From positions 13,016,653 to 13,080,652 of the forward strand of contig JARFYF010000061.1 in assembly GCA_030265395.1 (NCBI GenBank): a DNA stretch of 64,000 bases. The letters run 5' to 3'. The position numbers and the translations under genes are program-made. This document shows, piece by piece, positions 10,724 through 64,000 of the stretch (positions within the stretch are counted from its first letter, which is position 1; the number at the start of each line of letters is the position of its first letter). The stretch comes from Rhina ancylostomus (lineage: Eukaryota). The notes under the pieces are model-generated. The model was not told the DNA's origin. It worked only from the letters and a program-made list of their open reading frames with translations, and made no database searches.

Positions 10724-12115
10724 GTGATAGGTTGTCTATGAATAGGAATTTGATCAGAAGTGGTCCCTGTCTATTCCCAAAAGCAGAAAAGTCAGAGTTT
10801 CCAGGATTGAGTAATAAACTGAAAGAAGTAAGAAATCTGCCACATTATAAATACCAGTCTGATAATTCAACAGAGAATTAAGATGAACACAAGAAATAGT
10901 TGAAAGACTACACCAAATATGTAGGTTCTTGACATCTTCCTTCTGCATCTTAACGACCTAGGGTTTGACAGTGAGGCCCAGTGAGGAACAAAATGGCGAT
11001 CAATTGGTGAAGGTGGAGGAATGTCTGACGTACTTTGCATTGGGATTTACTAACATAAAGGGCTTTGCCGAAGCCACGTTAAACGGTTATGCCAAAGGGC
11101 TGGATGAAAATGGAAGAGTTATTGATGGGCTTGCACTTCCTGCAAATGATGTCACTAACTTCTATAGGATGGAGCCTGAACTGCTGAGTGGAATTGAGTT
11201 GCTTGTCATCTTCTTCCAGTTCTTCTCTGACATAGGAGTGATGCCAAAGGTTCCAAATGTTATGTCCTTGTTCATAAAAAGTGTGGCGAAGGATGAACTT
11301 GGTAATTCTATAACATCAGTCTAATCGTGGTGTTAGGGAGGCATTTAGGAAGAATAAGCTAGGAGAATAATAACATTGTGACAAACATGAACTAATGAAG
11401 GAGAGCTATTACAGATTTAAGGGCAACTCATGTTTGATTAATATGATTGAATTTTTTGATGAAATGATGGAGGGGAAGGGTTGGAATAGTGTAGTTGATA
11501 TCGAATATACATTATTTCTAAAAAAAAGTTTGATAGTTTTTAGATAAAATTTAATCCTTTGGTATAAAAAGCGCAGAAATGGCGGGGCTACACTTGTCTA
11601 AGGAATAGAGAAAGAGTTCTTGTGAGTAAATTTGGATCAGTGGAATACATGTAATTTCCCAGCCTCGGTTCATGGAACTGCTGTTGTTTCCGATATACAT
11701 CAATGAGCTGGAGTTGCATTTGCAGGTCACAATCTTGAAACTTGTAGAATAACACAAGTTGGAAGTACAGTAAGTAGTAAAGAAGACACAAATGGATCTG
11801 AGCAGCACAAAAACAAGCCAGTGTAATGGATCAACACAAAGGCGATGAGATCACCGCAGGAAGGTGACAGATGATACATTTTGGTAGAAAGAATGAAAGG
11901 AGATGGCAGCTGTTGAATGGCGCAGTTTTACAAAGGGTGTGGAAAATGCATGAAGGTGTTTGCGTAGAAATCTTTGAAGGTGTAATGATAGCTTTAACAA
12001 AACATATAGGATGCTGGGCTTCACAAACAGAGGTGCTGTGTACAAAAGCCAGGAAGTGACACTAAACCTACACATCCACCATTCACATGCCCCTGGAATG
12101 TTGAGTAACATTTCC
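10724..12115 (+). mobile_element. Old decayed CR1 ORF2 (host of nested insertions; continues at ~13575-13690 and ~15012-15340)
   Basis: Peptide LTYFALGFT...IFFQFFSDIGVMP...NVMSLFIKS..KDELGN resembles the CR1 pre-RT region; IHFGRKNE follows later. Confidence 0.7.
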
Positions 12116-12129
12116 AAGAATCATGCAAG

Positions 12130-13570
12130 AACGAGCGAGGGAACTACAGGCCAGTGAACCTAACAACATTGGTTGGAAAGTTACTGGAGGAGGTTGAATG
12201 GCAGGATTTACCAGTATTTGGAAAGGCAATGACTAATGGGGATGGTCAGCATGGCTTTGCACATGGGAAATTGTGTCTCACAACTTTGAATTTTTTTTTT
12301 GAAGAGATAATGAAGAGGATGGACGAGGGTGGGGTGGTGGATGTTTCGCAAGGCCTTTGATAAGATCTCACTTGGTAGACTAGCCCAGAAGGTTAGATTG
12401 CATGGGATTCAGAACGAGCAAGCAAATTGGATACAAAATTAACTTGATGAAAGGAGTCAGAAGGTGGTCGTGGAGGAGTTTTTTTTTCAGATTGGAGGCT
12501 TGTGACCAGTGATGTGCTGCAGGGATTGGTTCTGGGTTCCCTGTTGTTTTGTCGTCTAAATTAATGATTTGGATGAGAATGTAATTGGCATGGTTAGTAA
12601 GTATGCTGATGACACCAAAATTGGTGATATTGTGGAGAGTGAAGAGGGTTATCTAAGACTACTACCAGATCCAGATCAACTACGGAAGTGGACCAAAAAA
12701 TGGCAGATGGATATTAACATGGACAAGTGGACTTGCNNNNNNNNNNNNNNNNNNNNNNNNNNNNNNNNNNNNNNNNNNNNNNNNNNNNNNNNNNNNNNNN
12801 NNNNNNNNNNNNNNNNNNNNNNNNNNNNNNNNNNNNGGTCATGTGGACTTGCACTGTAAATGGAAGGGCTCTGCAGAGTGTTGGAGAGACCTGGGGGTAC
12901 AGGTACATAGTTCCCTGAAAGTGGAGGCACAGGTAGACAGGGTGGTGAAGAAGGCGTTTGGCACGTTTGCCTTCATCGGTCTGGACATTGAGTATAAGAG
13001 TTGGGACATCACATTACAAATGTACACATTGTTTTTGAGACTGCACTTGAAGTGCTGTGTGTGGTTCTTGTCACCGAGCTATATGAATGATGTCATTAAG
13101 CTGGAAAGGGTGCAGGAAAGATTCACAAGTATGTTACTGGGACCAGAAGGCTTGGGTTATAGAAGAGGCTGAGACATTTTTCCTTAGACCATAGGAGGGG
13201 TGAACTTAGAGGTGTATAAAATCATGGGAGGCATTGATTAGATGAATGGTCACAGTCTTTTTCCCAGGGTAGGAGAGTCTAAAACTAGAGGGCTTAGGTT
13301 TAAAATGAGAGGGGAAAGATTTAAAAGGGACCTGAGGGGCAACCTTTTCACAGAGAGGGTTCCAGTAATATTGAATGGGCCGCCAAAGGAAGCTGTAGAG
13401 GTAGGAACAATTACAACATTTAAAAGACATTTAAACAGGTGTATGGATAAAAAAGGGTTTAGAGGGATATGGGCCAAATGCAGGCAAATGGACCAGCTGA
13501 AATAGAAAACTTGGCCAGCATGGCTGAGTAGGGCTGAAAGGCCTACTTCTGTGCTGTATAACTCTTACGT
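12130..13570 (+). mobile_element. Younger 5'-truncated CR1 (HER1-like) LINE: RT to 3' end
   Basis: QHGF, SKYADDTKIG, LERVQERFT and SKTRGLRFKMRGERFKRDLRGNLFTERV motifs; tail ctgtgctgtataactct. Confidence 0.92.
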
Positions 13571-38045: not shown

Positions 38046-39139
38046 TATACGAGTTCCCACTGTGATCTTACTTCCAGTTTTAGCTGTTGTATTTTGTTCA
38101 GTCACAAAGCTTTCAGCATGCAGCCTCTTTTAGCTCTTTGCAAATTCCTGCTTGATTGTCCCAGTGGAAGGAATCTCAGCTAATTTGTCAGTCTCTCCTC
38201 TGCTGGAGATGACTGGTACTCATTTGCTCAACTGCCAAATGGCACAGTTAACTTCAGGAGAGTTAATTTGCAATTTACTGATCCATATTAGATCAACAAT
38301 ATGCTAATCCACCAATAAATTGAATCCAATGGTCTTGCTACTCCAACTGGAGCAGAAATAATAAATGACTGCTCTTATCCAATGAAGCCCAAGGCCATTG
38401 AATGTGATTAAAATCACCCTATACAGACTATATTCTAAGAGATGAAATCTGACTCAGTATCACACCATCACACAAACCAGCCTCCCCTTCACTGACTCGA
38501 GCAGAAGATATAAAAGCTNNNNNNNNNNNNNNNNNNNNNNNNNNNNNNNNNNNNNNNNNNNNNNNNNNNNNNNNNNNNNNNNNNNNNNNNNNNNNNNNNN
38601 NNNNNNNNNNNNNNNNNNGGTGGACGTGAACAGGATTTATATCTGTAATTTGACAGTCATATCCTTTTAATACTTTTAGTATGTGGGAGGGGAGAACAAT
38701 ACTAATATTAAAAGTGAGATCAAATTAAGGGTGCTCCTGATGAATCTTAAATCAGCGAAGGCAGATTTAGGATCTATCAGGACCAACAGCAGAGGCCCAG
38801 TTAGAGTAATTGAAGGCTGATGTTGCTGATCCATTACAGCAGACGCTGCAGAGGATCTGAAACCACAGAAAAGATCATCGCCGCTACAGAGCTGATGGCA
38901 AAGCAGGGAGAGAGACTGGGTCGTATTAATGATTCATTTACAGCGACAATCCCAAACCTGAAATGATTACAGCAGCAACTGGAGTGATGGGAATGTGCTG
39001 CTGAAGGCAGTGTGCTGGGGGAGGAAATTACAGAAATTTAATTAACAGACCAGGAAAGAAACTCTGGAACTTTCACTAGTTGGTCCCTTGTGGCGCTGTT
39101 CAGAGAGACATCGGGGAAGTTTTCTTCCAGCAATATATC

Positions 39140-39835
39140 ACCCACCTTCCTGTCTCTAATTCCTTCAGCTTCACTCTCTCTGTCACTGTCTTGTTCATGC
39201 TCTCTGATTTGGTTCCTGCCTGCATCTCCTTCTCTGAATGGACCTCGTTTCCTCTCACACTCTCACTCAATCTCTCTTTCCCTCTATTTCTATCTGTCAG
39301 TGTCTCAGCTACACTTTGATCCTCTCTCTTCCTTAGTCTTTGGCTCTCTCTCATTCTCTGACCCTCTTTATCTCTTGTCCTCTGACTCTCTGCCTCTGTG
39401 TGTGTGTGTGTCTCTCTCTCTCTCTCTCCTCTGTCTGTCTCTCTTTCTGTCTGTGTCCCTCTCTTACTTGTTTTCTCTGCCCCTCTTTCTTTCCTGTTTT
39501 CTCTGCCTCTCTCTTTCCCTTTCTCTGTTCCTCTCTCATTCTCTCTCTCTCTCTCTCTCTTTTTTCTCTCTCCCTCTGCCTCTCTTTCTCCCTCTTGTTT
39601 TCTCTGCTTCTTTCTTTCTCTCCCTCTCGGTCTGTCTGTTCCTCTCTCTCCTGTTCTCTGTCTTTGTCTGTGTCTCTTTTTTTCTCTCTGTGTCTGTCTC
39701 TTTCTCTCAGCCTCTGTTTCCTTTCCCTTGTTTTCGCTGCCTCTCTTTATTTCTCTCCCTCTTTCTGTCTGCTCCTCTCTCTCTCTCTCTCACCCTCTCT
39801 CTCACATGCTTTCTTTTGTTCTCTCCATCTCTCAC
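39140..39835. repeat. Degenerate (CT)n polypyrimidine tract, ~700 bp
   Basis: Almost pure C/T on plus strand with short (GT)n; source of spurious Leu/Ser ORFs. Confidence 0.95.
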
Positions 39836-40099
39836 CCATGTGCTGGGGATTATAAATATTTTCTGCTTTAGTGTCCAAGTCTTCCTTTGTTTCTAATTCC
39901 TGAGGTTTGATAGACCCTTCCCTCCCCGGTCCTCTCCATGATGCCTCAGTAAAATTTGCTGTTTATGACGACCAGGCACGAATTCCCTGTTCCACGGAAT
40001 GGCTATACAACAGAGTACAGCAGAGGTGGGCAGCACAGAGCGACAGAGACAGTGAGGTTTAGGAGCTTGAAGGACCTGGGCTTCCGAGTGAGTGGAGGT

Positions 40100-40920
40100 C
40101 AGCTGATCCCGGGTGAAGACAGGAAGGGTCAGAATTGGCACACAATATCGCAGAGGACCCAAGTGCAGAACCTTGGTACGAGACTGGAGTCAGGATGCTT
40201 CCTCAGAACCGAACACAGGCAGCGACCAGAAGGAATCTTGCCTCAGGGTTCTGAGACGGAGTCCCGACACAGAAACAGGATTTTCAAGGAGATACAGTGA
40301 AACCAACACCACTCTAGAGTTGAAAGCTCCAAGCAGCCACGACACAAAGGATACCCTGAGGTGGACCAATACTCTGGCAACTAGTGCCAGTGAAACCAGG
40401 GCTCTTATGCTCGTCTCCTGATGGGGCTGAGGAGCGTGTCGTTATGCGATCCATGTGCTGCACAACGAGGCACCATCAATGGGGCCAAATTGAGGGCCAG
40501 CACTCGGAACCATGACAGGAATGGACGAACACGAGGGATGGGCAAGAGTGGACTTGGGATGTGACAGCTGGGGTGAATGTGTAACTACTGAGGAAAGGCG
40601 GTGGACTAAATTAGCTGGTTGCTTTGTCGTGAATGAAAATGTCTTCACAGCAGAGGATGGGGAGGACATTCCCCGGACATTGATCGCACTGGAACACTCC
40701 AGACCCGAGGAAGGCTTGGATCGGCGGGGGTTCTTTTCTCCACAACCGAGGAGGCCGTTGAAGGACCCAGTAAACGGCAAAGGGCTTTTTACCCTCAGCA
40801 GAGGGTCAAAAACCAGGGACCACAGACTTAACATAGTTGGTGGAAGGATGAGAGACGGGGAAACACGTTGGGGGTCTGGAACCCTGGCCTGAAAGGGTGG
40901 GAGAGGCAAGACCCCTCCCC
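40100..40920 (+). mobile_element. Highly decayed, deletion-rich CR1 remnant, CpG-rich
   Basis: EEGLDRRGFFS..RR..D.VNGKGLF.LSRGSKTRDHRLNIVGGR resembles the CR1 ORF2 C-terminus. Confidence 0.6.
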
Positions 40921-40959
40921 ATGGTTAAACAGTACATGGGAGTTCGCTCAAAGCTCCAT

Positions 40960-41545
40960 TACAACAACACCTAGACTTCCTCAGAAGGCCAAGGAAATTC
41001 AGCACGTCCCCGATGACTCTTGGCAATTTTTACAGATGCACCATAGAAAGCATCCAATCAGGATGCACCACGGCTTGGTACGGCAACTGCTCGGCCCCAG
41101 ACCGCAAGAAATTGCAGGGAGTTGCAGACAGCCCAGTCCATCACACAAACCAGTATCCCCTCCACTGACTCCATCTACACTTCCTGCTGCCTCGGGAAAG
41201 CAGCCCTCCCACCCTGGACGTTCTCTCTTCTCCCCCGGCATCAGAAAGAAGATATAAAAGCTTGAGAGCATGTACCACCAGGCTCAAGGACAGCTTCTAT
41301 CCTAGTTATCAGACTCTTGCACGGGCCTCTCATACACTAAAAGATGAACTCGTGATCTCTCAATCTACCTCATTGTGGCCCTTGCATTTTATTTGTCTAC
41401 CTGCGCTGCACTTCCTCTGTAACACCACGTTCTGTTTTCTTTTTACTGCCCCAATATAATTATGTATGGAATGACCTGTCTGGATGGCACATAAAACAAA
41501 AACTTTTCACTGCATCTTAGTACGTGTGACAATATTAATAAACTA
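40960..41545 (+). mobile_element. Rex/Babar-type LINE 3' end
   Basis: caatttttacagatgcaccatagaaagcatcc...ggtacggcaactgctc; same family as 23995-24610. Confidence 0.85.
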
Positions 41546-47997: not shown

Positions 47998-49316
47998 TTA
48001 GTAACTGTACTTCTGTAATGGTTTGACCGGAGTTGTGGGTTGACCGAAGGATGGCTTTGGTGGCACATCTGGTTTAATGGATGGTGTTCTCTTTATTCCT
48101 GACCGAGGCAGCGTCCCATTGCTGGTGTAACTGCTCTGGCGGGACAATGAGCCAGGTTGTGGTTGAATAACAAGAGGAGTCCCGTGTACAGAATCCATCC
48201 TCATGGGCGGTGCTGGGGGAAAATATCCTCCCCTATTAAAACTGGGATGCCGTGACAACACAGCTCCATTCAATGAACTGATAACATTTTTAGGGAGCAC
48301 AGATATTGAGTGCCTCTGTGAAGAATTTCGGGGATAGCCTCGTTCTCTCTCTCTCTCTAAACTTGACAGTTGTATATTAGAGGTTGAGGGAACGTCCACG
48401 CGCTTAGTTGGGCTGTGTCTCGGGAGGGTAGAAGAAGGAGAATAGAGTGAAGCCTCTCTGTTCGGAACCTTGGGAGGTACTTCCACTATTTTGGTCATTG
48501 GTTCTAACATTATATTTTGACGAGTCATAGGGATGTCCCCCAAGATAGCTTTAGAACTGGTTCCACTTTCATTGAGATGTTTCAGGAGGTCATTTAATGT
48601 GTTTCTTGCTTCAACAGCTCTTTGCTGTTCTTTTTTACCAGAATGGCCAGTAATCGACATTTCTATATTTTGCACCTTCCTTTCAGCCTTGTGGGCATTA
48701 GAATTTGAGAAAGACATGTTGTAGGCATGGGTTGCATTGGGAAGTACCACAGCACTGGGTATCTGGCTATTGTGGTTTATGGGGGAATGGGAAGATGGAC
48801 TTGATGGAATAATCTGGGGGCTTTTTAAAGGTGATTCCTTTCTTGTCGCATTAATGTTGTTCTGGGCTTTCTCCCACTGGTTCTTAATGGGTTGAATGCT
48901 TTTCTGATGAAGTACGGGTGTAGACTCGGGTGTTGGCAAGGCTGCCAGTTCAGGAGGTTGTCCGTGGCTATCTACGATCATGGTCTTTGCATCACTGCTG
49001 GGTGGCAGCTCTTTACCATTAGATAGCAGATTTGTGTAAAGCTTGGGTGTGTCGATGCTTTGTGGGTACTCCTTGACTGGACTATCAAATAGTCCATTAA
49101 ATTTTGTGAAACTTCCACTTGAGTCAGTGCAGGACTGCGCAGATTCTGCATCCTTGTTCATCTTTCTGGCCTTGCGCAAGTAGGTATCGCGGTGACAGTA
49201 CACAGCCACACCAGAAATGAAGGCTCCCAGAACAAAAGCAGCCAAAACACAGGTGATCAGCACATTCATGTGAACCATTTGGTTTGCATCTCCGGATTGC
49301 ACTTCCCATCGAACTC
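47998..49316 (-). CDS. SEMA6D: SEMA6D last coding exon: TM helix and Pro/Ser-rich cytoplasmic tail
   Basis: ttttgctccag|GA then VRWEVQSGDANQMVHMNVLITCVLAAFVLGAFISGVAVYC, PPELAALPTPESTPVLHQK, KRTPSIKPDVPPKP, ending KYSY*. Stop at 47998-48000. Confidence 0.98.
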
Positions 49317-54833: not shown

Positions 54834-54977
54834 CATTGGGGACAGCAGATAATGTTTCAAAATAATCAAAAGTGTCCACATCATCTTGCATTGTAACTTT
54901 TCGTGAACCGATCACATTTGGAGATACTATCGGATCACTTACAGCAGTGGAAGCAGAGGCTGCTGGAACATCCATTT
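54834..54977 (-). CDS. SEMA6D: SEMA6D long stalk cassette exon, 144 nt, phase 1-1
   Basis: catcacag|AA then MDVPAASASTAVSDPIVSPNVIGSRKVTMQDDVDTFDYFETLSAVPN; donor G|GTAAGG. Resembles the mammalian DMEVSSSS...SRKFVVQDD...LSGIPK exon (recalled). Confidence 0.85.
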
Positions 54978-55814: not shown

Positions 55815-56910
55815 TCAGTCAGCGTGGATCGGTAATACCATCTCCTCCTCGCTGACGATCAACACAGGCACACCTCAAGGATGCATGCTTAGCCCACTGG
55901 TCTACTCATGACTGTGTGGCTAGGCACAGCTTAAATGCCAAATTTGCCAATGACACCACTGTTGTTGGCAGAATCTCAGATGGCAATGAGGAGGCATATA
56001 GGAGTGAGACAGATCAGCTGGTTGAGTCGTGTCACAAAAACAACCTCATACACAATGTCAGCAAGACCAAGAAATTGATTGTGGACTTCAGGAAGGGGAG
56101 GTCAGGAGAACACACAGCAGTCCTTATTGAGGGGATCAGCAGCTTCATGTTTCTGGGCATCTCAACATCTCAGAGGATCTTAGGCCCAACACATTGATAC
56201 AGTCATGAAGGCGGCACACCAGCAGCTCTACTTCTAATGAAGTCCTAATGGTTTGAGGAGATTTGGTCTGTCACCAAAGACTCTTGCAAATTTCTACATA
56301 TGTACTCTACTCAGGGGAGAGCATTCTGACTGGTTGCATCACCACCTGGTATGGAGGCTCCAATGAGCAGGATCAAAAGAGGCAGCAGAGGGTNNNNNNN
56401 NNNNNNNNNNNNNNNNNNNNNNNNNNNNNNNNNNNNNNNNNNNNNNNNNNNNNNNNNNNNNNNNNNNNNNNNNNNNNNNNNNNNNNNNNNNNNCATTCTG
56501 ACTGGTTGCATCACCACCTGGTATGGAGGCTCCAATGAGCAGGACCAAAAGAGACTGCAGAGGGTTGTAGATTCAGCCAGCTCCATCGTGGGCACAATCC
56601 TCCCCACCATGGAGTACGTCTACAAGTGGCGGTGCCTCAGGTGGCGGCGTCCATCATTAAGGACTCTCACCATCTGGGACATGCCTTCACGTTACCACCA
56701 GCAGCGAGGTGGTAAAGGAGCCTGAAGACTCGCACTCAGTGTTTCAGGAACAGCTTCTTCCCCTCTGCCATCAGATTTCTGAACAGTCCACGAACACTAC
56801 CTCATTATTCCTCTCTTGCACTATTTATTTTTGAGTCTTGCACTGTACTGCTGCCGCAAAACAATGAATTTCATGACACATGTCAGTGATGATAAACCTG
56901 ATTCTGAATT
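55815..56910 (+). mobile_element. Rex/Babar-type LINE (RT to 3' end), antisense in SEMA6D intron
   Basis: GTPQGCMLSPL, KFANDTTVVGRISDGNEEAYR, NVSKTKKLIVDFRK, ESILTGCITTWYG. Confidence 0.9.
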
Positions 56911-58303
56911 GATGGATGCCTGGAAATAATGCTAGTATCTGAAGTCAACTGGGAGACCCATTCTGGTGTGAACTATACACAAACAAAGCAGCAACTTCAT
57001 TTGATTAAGATTCACAACCATGGCCCAAATGATATTTACATCTTGCTGTAAAATGTCTGGGTGAAAAATAATTCTTGAAATGAACACATGGGCCACAGTG
57101 GGGGGGGGGGGGGGGCNNNNNNNNNNNNNNNNNNNNNNNNNNNNNNNNNNNNNNNNNNNNNNNNNNNNNNNNNNNNNNNNNNNNNNNNNNNNNNNNNNNN
57201 NNNNNNNNNNNNNNNNGGGAACAAGATGGACTAATGGCTATTTTCACACACCGAAAAGAAATTAAATCAGTATTACTGCATTATGGAATTTACATTAAGA
57301 TAATGTATGAGGGTTTTGCGAAATGTCCCTTTTAAATCTGCAGTGTTTTGCTGAATAGCAAAGAGAGCAGCTTACAGCTTGACATCAATCTTAGTGGTTG
57401 ATTCAGGACAGTTGGTGTCAGCAACAGTGTGTAGCAAATTACTTCTGAAATTGCATGGAGTGTGCATCCCATCATTTTTTTTTGCACCCAGTTTGCTTTT
57501 AACAGGCCCTCATCTTATTGATCCAGAAATCCTCAGGTGAATTAAGGCCACACTAGGATGGGTGTCATTTTATACCACGCTACTCTTTCATTATCAGTGG
57601 CAGAAAGTCAGCCTCTATGGGTTAGGAAGCTTGGGGACTAGATGCCACAATTATCTGGATCAAGTGCAGGTGCTCATCAGTTTGGAAAGTCCGTTACAAT
57701 AGATTTTGAACTTCCTTAAACAGCAAAACACTGACCACTGCACAGACCTCATGACTTGCTCACAATCTAAGCTGCTGGGGGATATAATGGTTATCTAAAC
57801 TGGTGCTCACAGTACAATCTGTATCTCAACACGAAGTATTTTAACATTTTCACAGGATTACATTCTTTTAAATTGAGAGTGTAGCTTAAAGTCCAACAAG
57901 ACAACAATGTGTTAACATTTCATTAATGAAGCACAGATCTGGATTTCTGAGGAAAAAAAGATAAGCAGATTAGCAGTTAACCAGTGAGATGCCTTCACAT
58001 GCTTGGGAAGCAAAGAAAACTGGGCTGCTACAAAATGCATCAAGTGTCGTAGAGCAATGTGTTAAAAGGTAACCCCTTGGGTAAGAAACCTGATTAGTCA
58101 GCGGAGGCGGAGAAACGTGCTGGGAGCCACTAGTGATTGAGGAGGAAAGAATGATTAGTTTGCTATATCGTGCTTGTGGCTGGCAGATGGAGAACAAATC
58201 ACATGTGGCCATCTGCCAAGTGAGCAGAAAGGGAAAAGGGTAAAGTTTGCTGAGGCAATGGAAGGAGGAATAGGCAAAAGCAAACAAAAACCCCAAAACT
58301 AAC

Positions 58304-58354
58304 CAGATGTTGGATCACCAAATGATTTGTAATCTGGTGTAGCGACCAAGATTT
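58304..58354 (-). CDS. SEMA6D: SEMA6D short stalk cassette exon, 51 nt, phase 1-1
   Basis: ttcttctag|AA then ILVATPDYKSFGDPTS; donor G|GTTAGT. Resembles the mammalian alternative exon EILPTSTTPDYKIFGGPTS (recalled). Confidence 0.85.
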
Positions 58355-58729
58355 CTAGAAGAATTAAAAGAAAGATTAGTAGGGAAAAAAACAGTTCAAA
58401 ATAAAGATAACGAACTGAGCAAATGAAATGGTTTAATCAAAATCAGCTGTCGACACCACGTAAACAAGACTTCAGAACATCAACTTGATGTGCCGCTGTT
58501 TAGAAATTGCTAAAATAATAGATTTTCAGCTCTGCAAACTATATTAGGATGATCAAAAAGTTGGCTCTTTTGAAAGTCTACATGTTATCTGGTTGAAATG
58601 TTAGTCATGCATGAAATTACAAAGTGGGACTCGGTAACTGAACATCAGAGTACCTGTCTATTGGCTTGTGGCTTCAAATCCTAAATTCCCCCCATATTAA
58701 TGGAAATTGGTTAGAGAAATCTCACTTAC

Positions 58730-58788
58730 CATGACATTCTCCAAGATGTGCTGTATTGCCAGATTCCACATCTTGTTCAAACACAGTG
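58730..58788 (-). CDS. SEMA6D: SEMA6D coding exon, end of PSI, 59 nt
   Basis: caccag|C then TVFEQDVESGNTAHLGECH; donor G|GTAAGT. Confidence 0.93.
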
Positions 58789-58916
58789 CTGGTGATTAAA
58801 AAGCAAAAATCTGAGAAATTGAAATTTAGCGGCAAACAGAAGGGAGAATATCAACTCTAAGTGTAGTCTTGCCAAAGTTATCAGAAATTCAAGTGTTAAT
58901 GAAAACACATACTTAC

Positions 58917-58994
58917 TTCATACCAGGTCTCACAGCTCCACATTATTTATTATCCAGCCAGGCACAGTATGGATCTCTTGAACCAATACAAGCT
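58917..58994 (-). CDS. SEMA6D: SEMA6D PSI-domain exon, 78 nt, contains in-frame TAA at 58943-58945
   Basis: ttactcag|A then ACIGSRDPYCAWLDNK*CGAVRPGM; donor AA|GTAAGT. The PSI motif CxxSRDPYCxW is clear. Confidence 0.93.
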
Positions 58995-60240
58995 CTGAGT
59001 AAAACAGAAAATAATGGGCATCTCTGTGGGTATAGTTCAGTTTTAAATCAGCACATTAGTGGTGTGGGTAGTAACTTGATTGTGTGGTCTGGCACTCACA
59101 GGTACAAAGTCACAGGCATAAGAGTGCTGGCTCAGAGAATCACCCTTTACATCAGTACCCATGAACATTTTGCCTCATGGTTGGTCTCCAAACTTCTGAA
59201 AACATTCAATCTTCCCACAACTGGAAATGCAATTCCCTTTTCTTGGTAACATATTCTACAACGATCTTACCCATTGAATGATAAATGTACAACTTTCATG
59301 CTTTTACCTTCCTATTTCATTTTTAATCTTTCATTCTGGCACTTGAACACTTTCCCCATGGAGGGAGATTTGTCTAGATGGACAATATGTGCATAAATAG
59401 TTTAAAATGCAAACTCTCCTCCATGCAAGGGACAGATACATTGAAATATTCTATTAATTCCACAAGTGATATAGTCTTAACAAGTCACTTCATATAAATT
59501 AAGTTTTTAATATTTTATAGCATTTGTGATTTTTCTTTCTCTGAACTCTGGCTCTTTTTATGTGGTTTATTATAATCATAAAAAGCACATTAATGATCTT
59601 CATTGCCACATAATCCATTATGTCTAGCGACCTATCCTCAATGCTGTGTCACCCCTCAGCAGCCAGCTGATCTGAAAATCTCCAGATGATAAAATATTAA
59701 ATTGAGATTTAACTAGGTTGAACATCCAGGTTCCAGTGAGAACTTCAAAGCCGATATTGATATTTTAGTTCCATTAGCTGATGCATATTTGAAAGTCATA
59801 AATGCAAAACTGCAATCAGTTGCTGCACTAGAAGAAATTGTTTCTGAAAGATGCAAGTAGGACACGTACTGAAAAATGGCAACTTTTCCTGCCGCGACTC
59901 TTCCCCCCCCCCCCCCACCCCNNNNNNNNNNNNNNNNNNNNNNNNNNNNNNNNNNNNNNNNNNNNNNNNNNNNNNNNNNNNNNNNNNNNNNNNNNNNNNN
60001 NNNNNNNNNNNNNNNNNNNNNATAATTCTGCCTGCCTCTCATGCTCCTAAATGTCAAGTCTGTTCCTTGTTATGTGAACTCATCACAATGAAGAACTATT
60101 TGTTTACATCCAATTTGTCAAACCTTCACAACTCCTTTCCATGTCAATACACTGCCCAGTTTAGTTTCTGCAAAAGGATGAAGATGCTTGCTGTTATCAT
60201 ACACTGTTTAAATACTATTATAAAAGTAAGAAACACTAAC

Positions 60241-60381
60241 TTTTTGCAAGTGCCATAATGTTCGCAGTGACTGAGTGGTACACGAATGACACAGCTGGAA
60301 AAGGCCACAAACAAGGCATGGTGATCTTTATCGATCTGCAATCCCAGTACCTTTCTGTCATCTTCGTTTGCAGCATTACAC
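60241..60381 (-). CDS. SEMA6D: SEMA6D coding exon, end of Sema domain and start of PSI, 141 nt
   Basis: aacag|G then CNAANEDDRKVLGLQIDKDHHALFVAFSSCVIRVPLSHCEHYGTCK; donor AA|GTTAGT. Confidence 0.95.
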
Positions 60382-61119: not shown

Positions 61120-61293
61120 TTTAATGGGTTAAAAACATCTATTTCCTCCAGTAGTATGCTGTCATTGAGTGAGCTGGGACTTGTTTTTGTTAATACTTTA
61201 AGCAGCATGCCTGCTTCAGAACCGATAAAGATAACCGTGTAGTTCTGATGGGGACCGGCAGTGTTGTCAATAGCAATTGCTGTCAGGCGGTAC
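61120..61293 (-). CDS. SEMA6D: SEMA6D coding exon, Sema domain, 174 nt
   Basis: tttacag|G then YRLTAIAIDNTAGPHQNYTVIFIGSEAGMLLKVLTKTSPSSLNDSILLEEIDVFNPL; donor AA|GTATGT. Confidence 0.96.
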
Positions 61294-61383: not shown

Positions 61384-61539
61384 CTGACCCGTGTCTTGGT
61401 GAACCAGGGCTCCTCTATGAGCGAGGGGACAGCTGAGTCCATCAGGGGATGGGATTTGATGAAGGAGAGTGTTTCATCAGGGAAATCAATGGAGGTTTTG
61501 TAAGATTCTGCTGGTGCATGTCCTGCACAGCAACCAGGC
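61384..61539 (-). CDS. SEMA6D: SEMA6D coding exon, Sema domain, 156 nt
   Basis: taaag|G then PGCCAGHAPAESYKTSIDFPDETLSFIKSHPLMDSAVPSLIEEPWFTKTRV; donor AG|GTAGG. Confidence 0.96.
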
Positions 61540-61700: not shown

Positions 61701-61832
61701 CTTGGCTGTGGTATCCTGTCTTCTGGAACAGCAGTCCAAACAGAGTCTGGTGTCTTTTGCTCCTTAAACCTTCCCTTGAATGATTTTTCAATGTCTTCCA
61801 TATTAAAGGCACACACTGCTGACCCAGGGATA
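61701..61832 (-). CDS. SEMA6D: SEMA6D coding exon, Sema domain, 132 nt
   Basis: tttag|T then [43 protein letters not shown]; donor AG|GTACAG. Confidence 0.96.
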
Positions 61833-62741: not shown

Positions 62742-62959
62742 CTGTTAAGCTGTGTTGTAAATACTCCAATAATAGTTGGGTACCCATTGATTTGTATAAT
62801 ATCTGTGACAGATTGCAATACATCAAAGTAGAAGAATGAATCCCCAGGAACTGAACAGTTTAATCGAGCTTTTAGAAAGGATGTCCAGTGTTTTTCCAAC
62901 ACCCTCTGGGATCCTCCCATGTCATTCTTACAAATTCTTGCCACACGTGAATAAACAGC
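62742..62959 (-). CDS. SEMA6D: SEMA6D coding exon, Sema domain, 218 nt
   Basis: ttcacag|[72 protein letters not shown]; donor AG|GTGAG. Confidence 0.97.
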
Positions 62960-63638: not shown

Positions 63639-63727
63639 CTTTCCAAGATTGTTGTGCTCAACAGCTATTTCTCTGAAGAAGAAATAGACAAAATTTCCAT
63701 ATTCAACAGCATGTAGGAAGTGTGGTT
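63639..63727 (-). CDS. SEMA6D: SEMA6D coding exon, Sema domain, 89 nt, GC donor
   Basis: tttttaacag|AA then PHFLHAVEYGNFVYFFFREIAVEHNNLGK; donor AAG|GCAAGT, phase 0. Confidence 0.95.
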
Positions 63728-63895: not shown

Positions 63896-64000
63896 CTTTG
63901 ATCCATTTTGAATCATATTTTATAGTCCTCAGAGCCGAACCATCTCCCATACTGCGGTAGATGACTGCATCGCTAGCTAGGAAATCTGCAACAGTTGCCG
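63896..64000 (-). CDS. SEMA6D: SEMA6D coding exon, Sema domain (5' end outside window)
   Basis: Translates to ATVADFLASDAVIYRSMGDGSALRTIKYDSKWIK; donor G|GTAAT, phase 1. Confidence 0.95.

Follow-up and report, generated by a model that had tools for sequence, protein, structure and literature searches.

The assembled sequence of SEMA6D in Rhina ancylostomus is interrupted by an in-frame TAA codon, and we conclude that this stop is most likely not a real feature and that probably no gene has been lost. With a probability of roughly 0.9, the TAA is a one-base consensus error, a wrong rendering of TCA in an assembly that is gappy and has low coverage; SEMA6D in the animal itself is likely normal and full-length. 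This reading is favored by the serine that orthologues carry at this position, the TCA codons found in contigs from two relatives, the lack of any other lesion in the gene, a hole at the site in contigs from the best-matching sequencing run, and the gaps in the assembly itself.

A Lone Stop Codon in an Otherwise Intact SEMA6D Gene

We analyzed 64,000 nucleotides of contig JARFYF010000061.1 (hereafter the window). On the minus strand, the sequence ...TGG CTG GAT AAT AAA TAA TGT GGA... places the TAA, in frame, at positions 58945-58943. It occupies codon 544 of a 1,076-codon, 18-exon SEMA6D model and is the sole internal stop. The exon that contains it encodes part of the PSI domain (58917..58994, minus strand; 78 nt, phase 2-2, ag/gt ends) and translates to ACIGSRDPYCAWLDNK*CGAVRPGM. 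A spliced contig from a relative (X9) confirms these bounds through its joints and its loose ends, and the full gene model, together with these splice joints, rules out a wrong frame or exon boundary. A second copy or haplotig was also ruled out: when 58700-59100 was used in a DNA search of the 2.2-Gb, 65,984-contig assembly, the only match was the window itself, and the stop exon is thus single-copy. The preliminary description, which reported a TAA in the PSI-domain exon of an otherwise intact SEMA6D and gave the size and phase of that exon, was correct on each count. What is confirmed is a letter in the assembly and not a variant in the animal.

Twelve exons of the gene lie in the window, all on the minus strand, and the 11 that lack the stop are open and in phase, as had been described; six further exons upstream (locus L002) are likewise intact. 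Exon 7, within the Sema domain, occupies 63896..64000 and starts at 64015, just beyond the window. It is followed by exons 8 (63639..63727), 9 (62742..62959), 10 (61701..61832), 11 (61384..61539), and 12 (61120..61293), which were placed by the gene model, and by exon 13 (60241..60381), which encodes the end of the Sema domain and the start of the PSI domain and matches a loose end of the relative's contig. Beyond the stop exon, the 59-nt exon 15 (58730..58788), supported by both the gene model and the relative's contig, completes the PSI domain. Two in-frame alternative exons sit between the PSI domain and the membrane anchor, one of 51 nt (58304..58354; gene model, protein alignment, and relative's contig) and one of 144 nt (54834..54977; gene model, with a matching loose end in the relative's contig), and the relative's contig splices in both. 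The last exon (47998..49316) encodes the transmembrane segment, which we recognized by eye, and the cytoplasmic tail, both downstream of the stop. It remains open for at least 437 codons, to a normal stop, and shares 99% identity with P0001, the nearest protein in the database. Across the model, the 17 exons other than the stop exon are open, and splice sites have ag/gt ends throughout save for one GC donor, at exon 8, which gives a GC-AG intron.

The gene is a typical orthologue of SEMA6D, a class-6 transmembrane semaphorin. The window model and P0001 are identical at 997 of 1,011 aligned residues (98.6%), and comparison of the two revealed no frameshift or splice defect in any of the 18 exons. 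Pfam finds PF01403 (Sema) and then PF01437 (PSI) on P0001, whose best solved match is Semaphorin 6D (PDB 7y4o), at 1,092.6 bits versus approximately 814 for Semaphorin-6A. Weaker, paralogous loci were found on contigs C104 and C57 of the assembly.

Relatives Encode Serine at Codon 544

A protein search with the last exon gave 1,707 matches, 120 of which were listed. We aligned the closest 70 rows (P0001-P0041, P0069, and the cluster members P0121-P0148), which come from at least 20 assemblies as judged by distinct contig sizes, and set aside the other 78 listed proteins. In the column of the stop, 68 of the 70 rows have serine, and the remaining two are gaps in aberrant models.

The nucleotide at this site could be read in contigs from two relatives. 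In a single contig (depth 4.4) from X2, a DNA-sized run that belongs to the closest relative listed, and in the contig from X9, a probable RNA run of another relative (depth 15.4), the plus strand has G at 58944, which makes the codon TCA; the assembly has T. At the other listed differences in the stop exon, 58924 and 58935, X9 agrees with the window, and among the listed sites only at 58944 does the window stand alone. The stop is therefore not shared with the close relatives examined (X2, X9, and the 68 serine-bearing rows). Judged from these sequences, the ancestral codon is TCA (Ser), from which the one base at 58944 gives TAA; TCA was among the sense codons put forward as candidates when the stop was first described.

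Contigs of the Best-Matching Run Have a Hole at the Stop

Twenty-four sequencing runs were listed, all in the form of assembled contigs, and four were compared with the window over 58250-59500. No run recorded as RNA was among those listed, a result that has no bearing on expression. The best-matching run, X1, contains 0.89 of the words sampled. Over 1,070 of 1,251 bases, its four contigs show no differences from the window, and X1 is thus likely to be the source sample of the assembly or to come from the same species. Its word depth is only 4.2-6.7. X23, a small run from the same organism as X1, has no contig at 58250-59500 and offers no evidence either way. Among the contigs compared, TAA came from the assembly alone and TCA from relatives alone, none of them the source species.

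The X1 contigs break off after 58899 and begin again at 58979; the 79-base hole between them (58900..58978) contains the stop and reaches 44 and 34 bases to either side of 58944. Further holes lie at 58553-58651 and 59173-59175, and the three total 181 of 1,251 bases. As holes make up 14% of the compared stretch, the coincidence of hole and stop is worth only about tenfold. According to PMC12424806, Logan removes words that occur only once, as well as isolated contigs shorter than 150 bp, and any contig island within 58900-58978 would be below that length. Since filters may also drop contigs, the X1 hole alone proves nothing.

To interpret the hole, we used a simulation matched to X1 in the fraction of words present (0.86-0.89) and in word depth (5.6-6.4), with reads of 150 nt and an error rate assumed to be 0.2%, in place of an uncalibrated Poisson version. 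In this simulation, the chance that a site is left uncovered was 0.07-0.10 for a homozygous site and 0.11-0.13 for a heterozygous one, and it rose to 1.0 where there was only one read. Simulated holes of 50-120 nt had a read depth of 1-2 in about 80% of cases, and 3-5% of covered sites were at depth 1. The hole thus fits one or two reads at the site, with X1 as the presumed source. We presume the following course of events: with X1 as the source of the assembly, or a run comparable to that source, the site would have been covered by just one or two reads, one of which would have carried a wrong base call that passed into the consensus.

Assembly Quality and Background Stops

SEMA6D allows 9,675 different single-base changes, 413 of which give a stop. 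At the assumed error of 0.2%, the model predicts spurious stops in about 1% of genes of this size, or of the order of a hundred across the genome. The assembly is visibly gappy: 73,347 bases contained 19 N-runs, and the flanks of two of these are duplicated. N-gaps lie inside four of nine Frizzled reading frames (L003, L004, L005, and L010, with 704, 100, 348, and 15 bases, respectively), and the gap in L004 has duplicated flanks, a scaffolding artefact. Within the window, the two flanks of a 100-N gap (56394-56493) have a 51-base word in common, a false duplication at the join. A long CT-rich simple repeat was also seen at ~39100-39900, and, by eye, stretches at ~12100-13500, 39100-39900, 40800-41450, and 55850-56720 resemble fragments of LINE-type retroelements.

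As a control for background stops, we examined approximately 45,000 codons of the assembly, comprising 147 GPCR, 26 connexin, and 10 long Frizzled matches. The GPCR set (7tm_1) was scored from 2,367 candidates, all 26 connexin matches were used, and the Frizzled search gave 16 matches; 111 ANF_receptor matches were left out, as many are likely pseudogenes or exon-edge matches. These codons yielded no further case of a lone stop in an otherwise clean gene. The long control matches that do contain stops have other explanations: intron read-through (L014 and L016), multiple lesions (L012 and L013), or frameshifted duplicates (L015). L012 (C50:34951500-34953300, minus strand) is a GPCR gene that resembles a melanin-concentrating hormone receptor. 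It carries a TAG in frame, what looks like a frameshift close to its start, and altered conserved motifs, and may be a real pseudogene. L013 (C84:90292000-90293800, minus strand), which we take to be a chemokine-receptor-like gene, has three stops within eight codons and is open elsewhere. At L015 (C55:2001200-2005800, plus strand), two near-identical connexin copies lie in tandem, both frameshifted.

Spurious lone stops are thus not common in the assembly, and the control gives no support to a high error rate. Since the model expects only about 0.5 lone stops in ~45,000 codons, and best-scoring matches favor intact genes, this null result neither confirms nor refutes a base-call error. A separate point counts against a consensus error: premature stops are among the least frequent causes of false gene losses (PMC9516821).

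Could the Stop Be Real?

The preliminary description had offered a consensus error, a segregating nonsense allele, and a recent lesion without ranking them. The ancestral TCA and the low-depth hole favor the first, and the other two are less favored.

The better of these two is a heterozygous Ser544-to-stop allele in the sequenced individual, picked by the assembler, with a normal second allele. We regard this as improbable, even though it is compatible with all the same-species data, would lack other decay as a young allele should, and makes a contig hole slightly likelier (0.11-0.13 versus 0.07-0.10). Allele splitting alone would end the contigs beside 58944, whereas the hole spans 44 + 34 bases; as it is wider than splitting gives, local coverage was probably low for another reason. 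Nonsense alleles are rare in strongly conserved genes, and the ~1% of spurious stops per gene expected from the model is well above the prior for such an allele in a constrained gene. If the allele were real, its transcript would likely be lost to nonsense-mediated decay (NMD), as first predicted: the gene model puts the stop 85-280 nt upstream of the last junction, and the rule for NMD is 50-55 nt.

Less probable still is that the Ser544-to-stop change was very recently fixed or is at high frequency in the species. This would be a natural vertebrate knockout of SEMA6D as a membrane-bound ligand and receptor, and what is left might be only a secreted Sema fragment or a protein that lacks the skipped exon and, with it, a complete PSI domain. 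In its strict version, to which we give very little credence, a homozygous or fixed, very recent loss yields either a null or a secreted 543-residue fragment consisting of Sema and half of PSI. The sole copy of the exon in the assembly does read TAA, and Sema6D is described in PMC9021825 as able to release a Sema+PSI ectodomain. The 543-residue product, however, would end before the last two of the six cysteines of the PSI region and would have neither the membrane anchor nor the tail. A homozygous site would have an X1 contig 90-93% of the time in our simulation, and the long last exon is 99% identical to its nearest relative, with no further lesion. When examined as a unitary pseudogene, the gene showed one stop, canonical splice sites, no frameshift, and 997/1,011 identity to P0001, which is not the pattern of further lesions. 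In zebrafish, vessels and motor axons are reported to be disturbed both after knockdown of sema6D and in F0 knockouts (PMC9021825).

Lastly, a real stop could be circumvented or put to use, if the 78-nt exon were skipped in frame, if the stop were read through, or if polyadenylation took place at the adjacent AATAAA, a set of possibilities that we consider barely credible; fixed loss and bypass, taken together, are unlikely. Skipping was originally noted to restore the frame. The frame would indeed be kept (78 nt, phase 2-2), and exactly these 26 residues are missing in five of the 120 listed proteins, all of more distant vertebrates (P0052, P0053, P0054, P0070, and P0109), which may be annotated exon-skip isoforms. 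However, skipping removes three of the six PSI-region cysteines, the skipped form that we tested (P0052) loses its Pfam PSI match, both splice sites of the exon are canonical, and there was no clean skip in the 41 closest rows inspected.

The AATAAA (58946..58951, minus strand) does directly precede the stop, as described; the hint that it might be a poly(A) signal is not supported. It consists of Asn-Lys codons in the conserved motif WL[D/E]NKS, is unchanged in X2 and X9, and shows no sign of such a role. The 2,234-nt spliced contig of X9 retains the stop exon, runs past the AATAAA, and includes the 59-nt and 51-nt exons before it reaches the 144-nt exon; in this relative, the contig thus gives no indication of a secreted isoform made by internal polyadenylation. 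Readthrough and RNA editing were set aside on general grounds, and UAA-U is not known to be a leaky context.

Implications and Comparison with Known Systems

If the TAA is an error, as is likely, it serves as a caution: a single stop in this assembly needs support from reads before it is taken for a gene loss. A real and fixed stop, by contrast, would mean that a conserved gene for axon guidance and heart development had been lost naturally and would test whether reverse signaling by Sema6D through its tail is dispensable. A literature search with one combination of terms, aimed at SEMA6D loss or a SEMA6D pseudogene in sharks, gave no mention of SEMA6D among the 10 of 265 matches listed, and our searches found nothing citable on the lethality or viability of mouse SEMA6D knockouts or on a named secreted isoform.

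The stop resembles segregating loss-of-function alleles in wild vertebrates in being a single nonsense change without further decay, and differs in that SEMA6D is strongly conserved and the TAA has no read support here. Compared with solved SEMA6D (PDB 7y4o/7y4q), the window encodes the same Sema and PSI domains, followed by a hydrophobic segment and a long tail. The difference lies at codon 544, where the window has TAA, orthologues have serine, and the solved chain reads WLSQGVC. PMC9097209 and PMC7066498 supply general background only.

The closest likeness is to the false premature stops described in short-read vertebrate assemblies (PMC9516821). Whereas those errors were confirmed with a better assembly and mapped reads, ours is inferred from contigs; the two cases have in common a single in-frame stop in an intact gene, apparently low read depth, and Ns in coding sequence.
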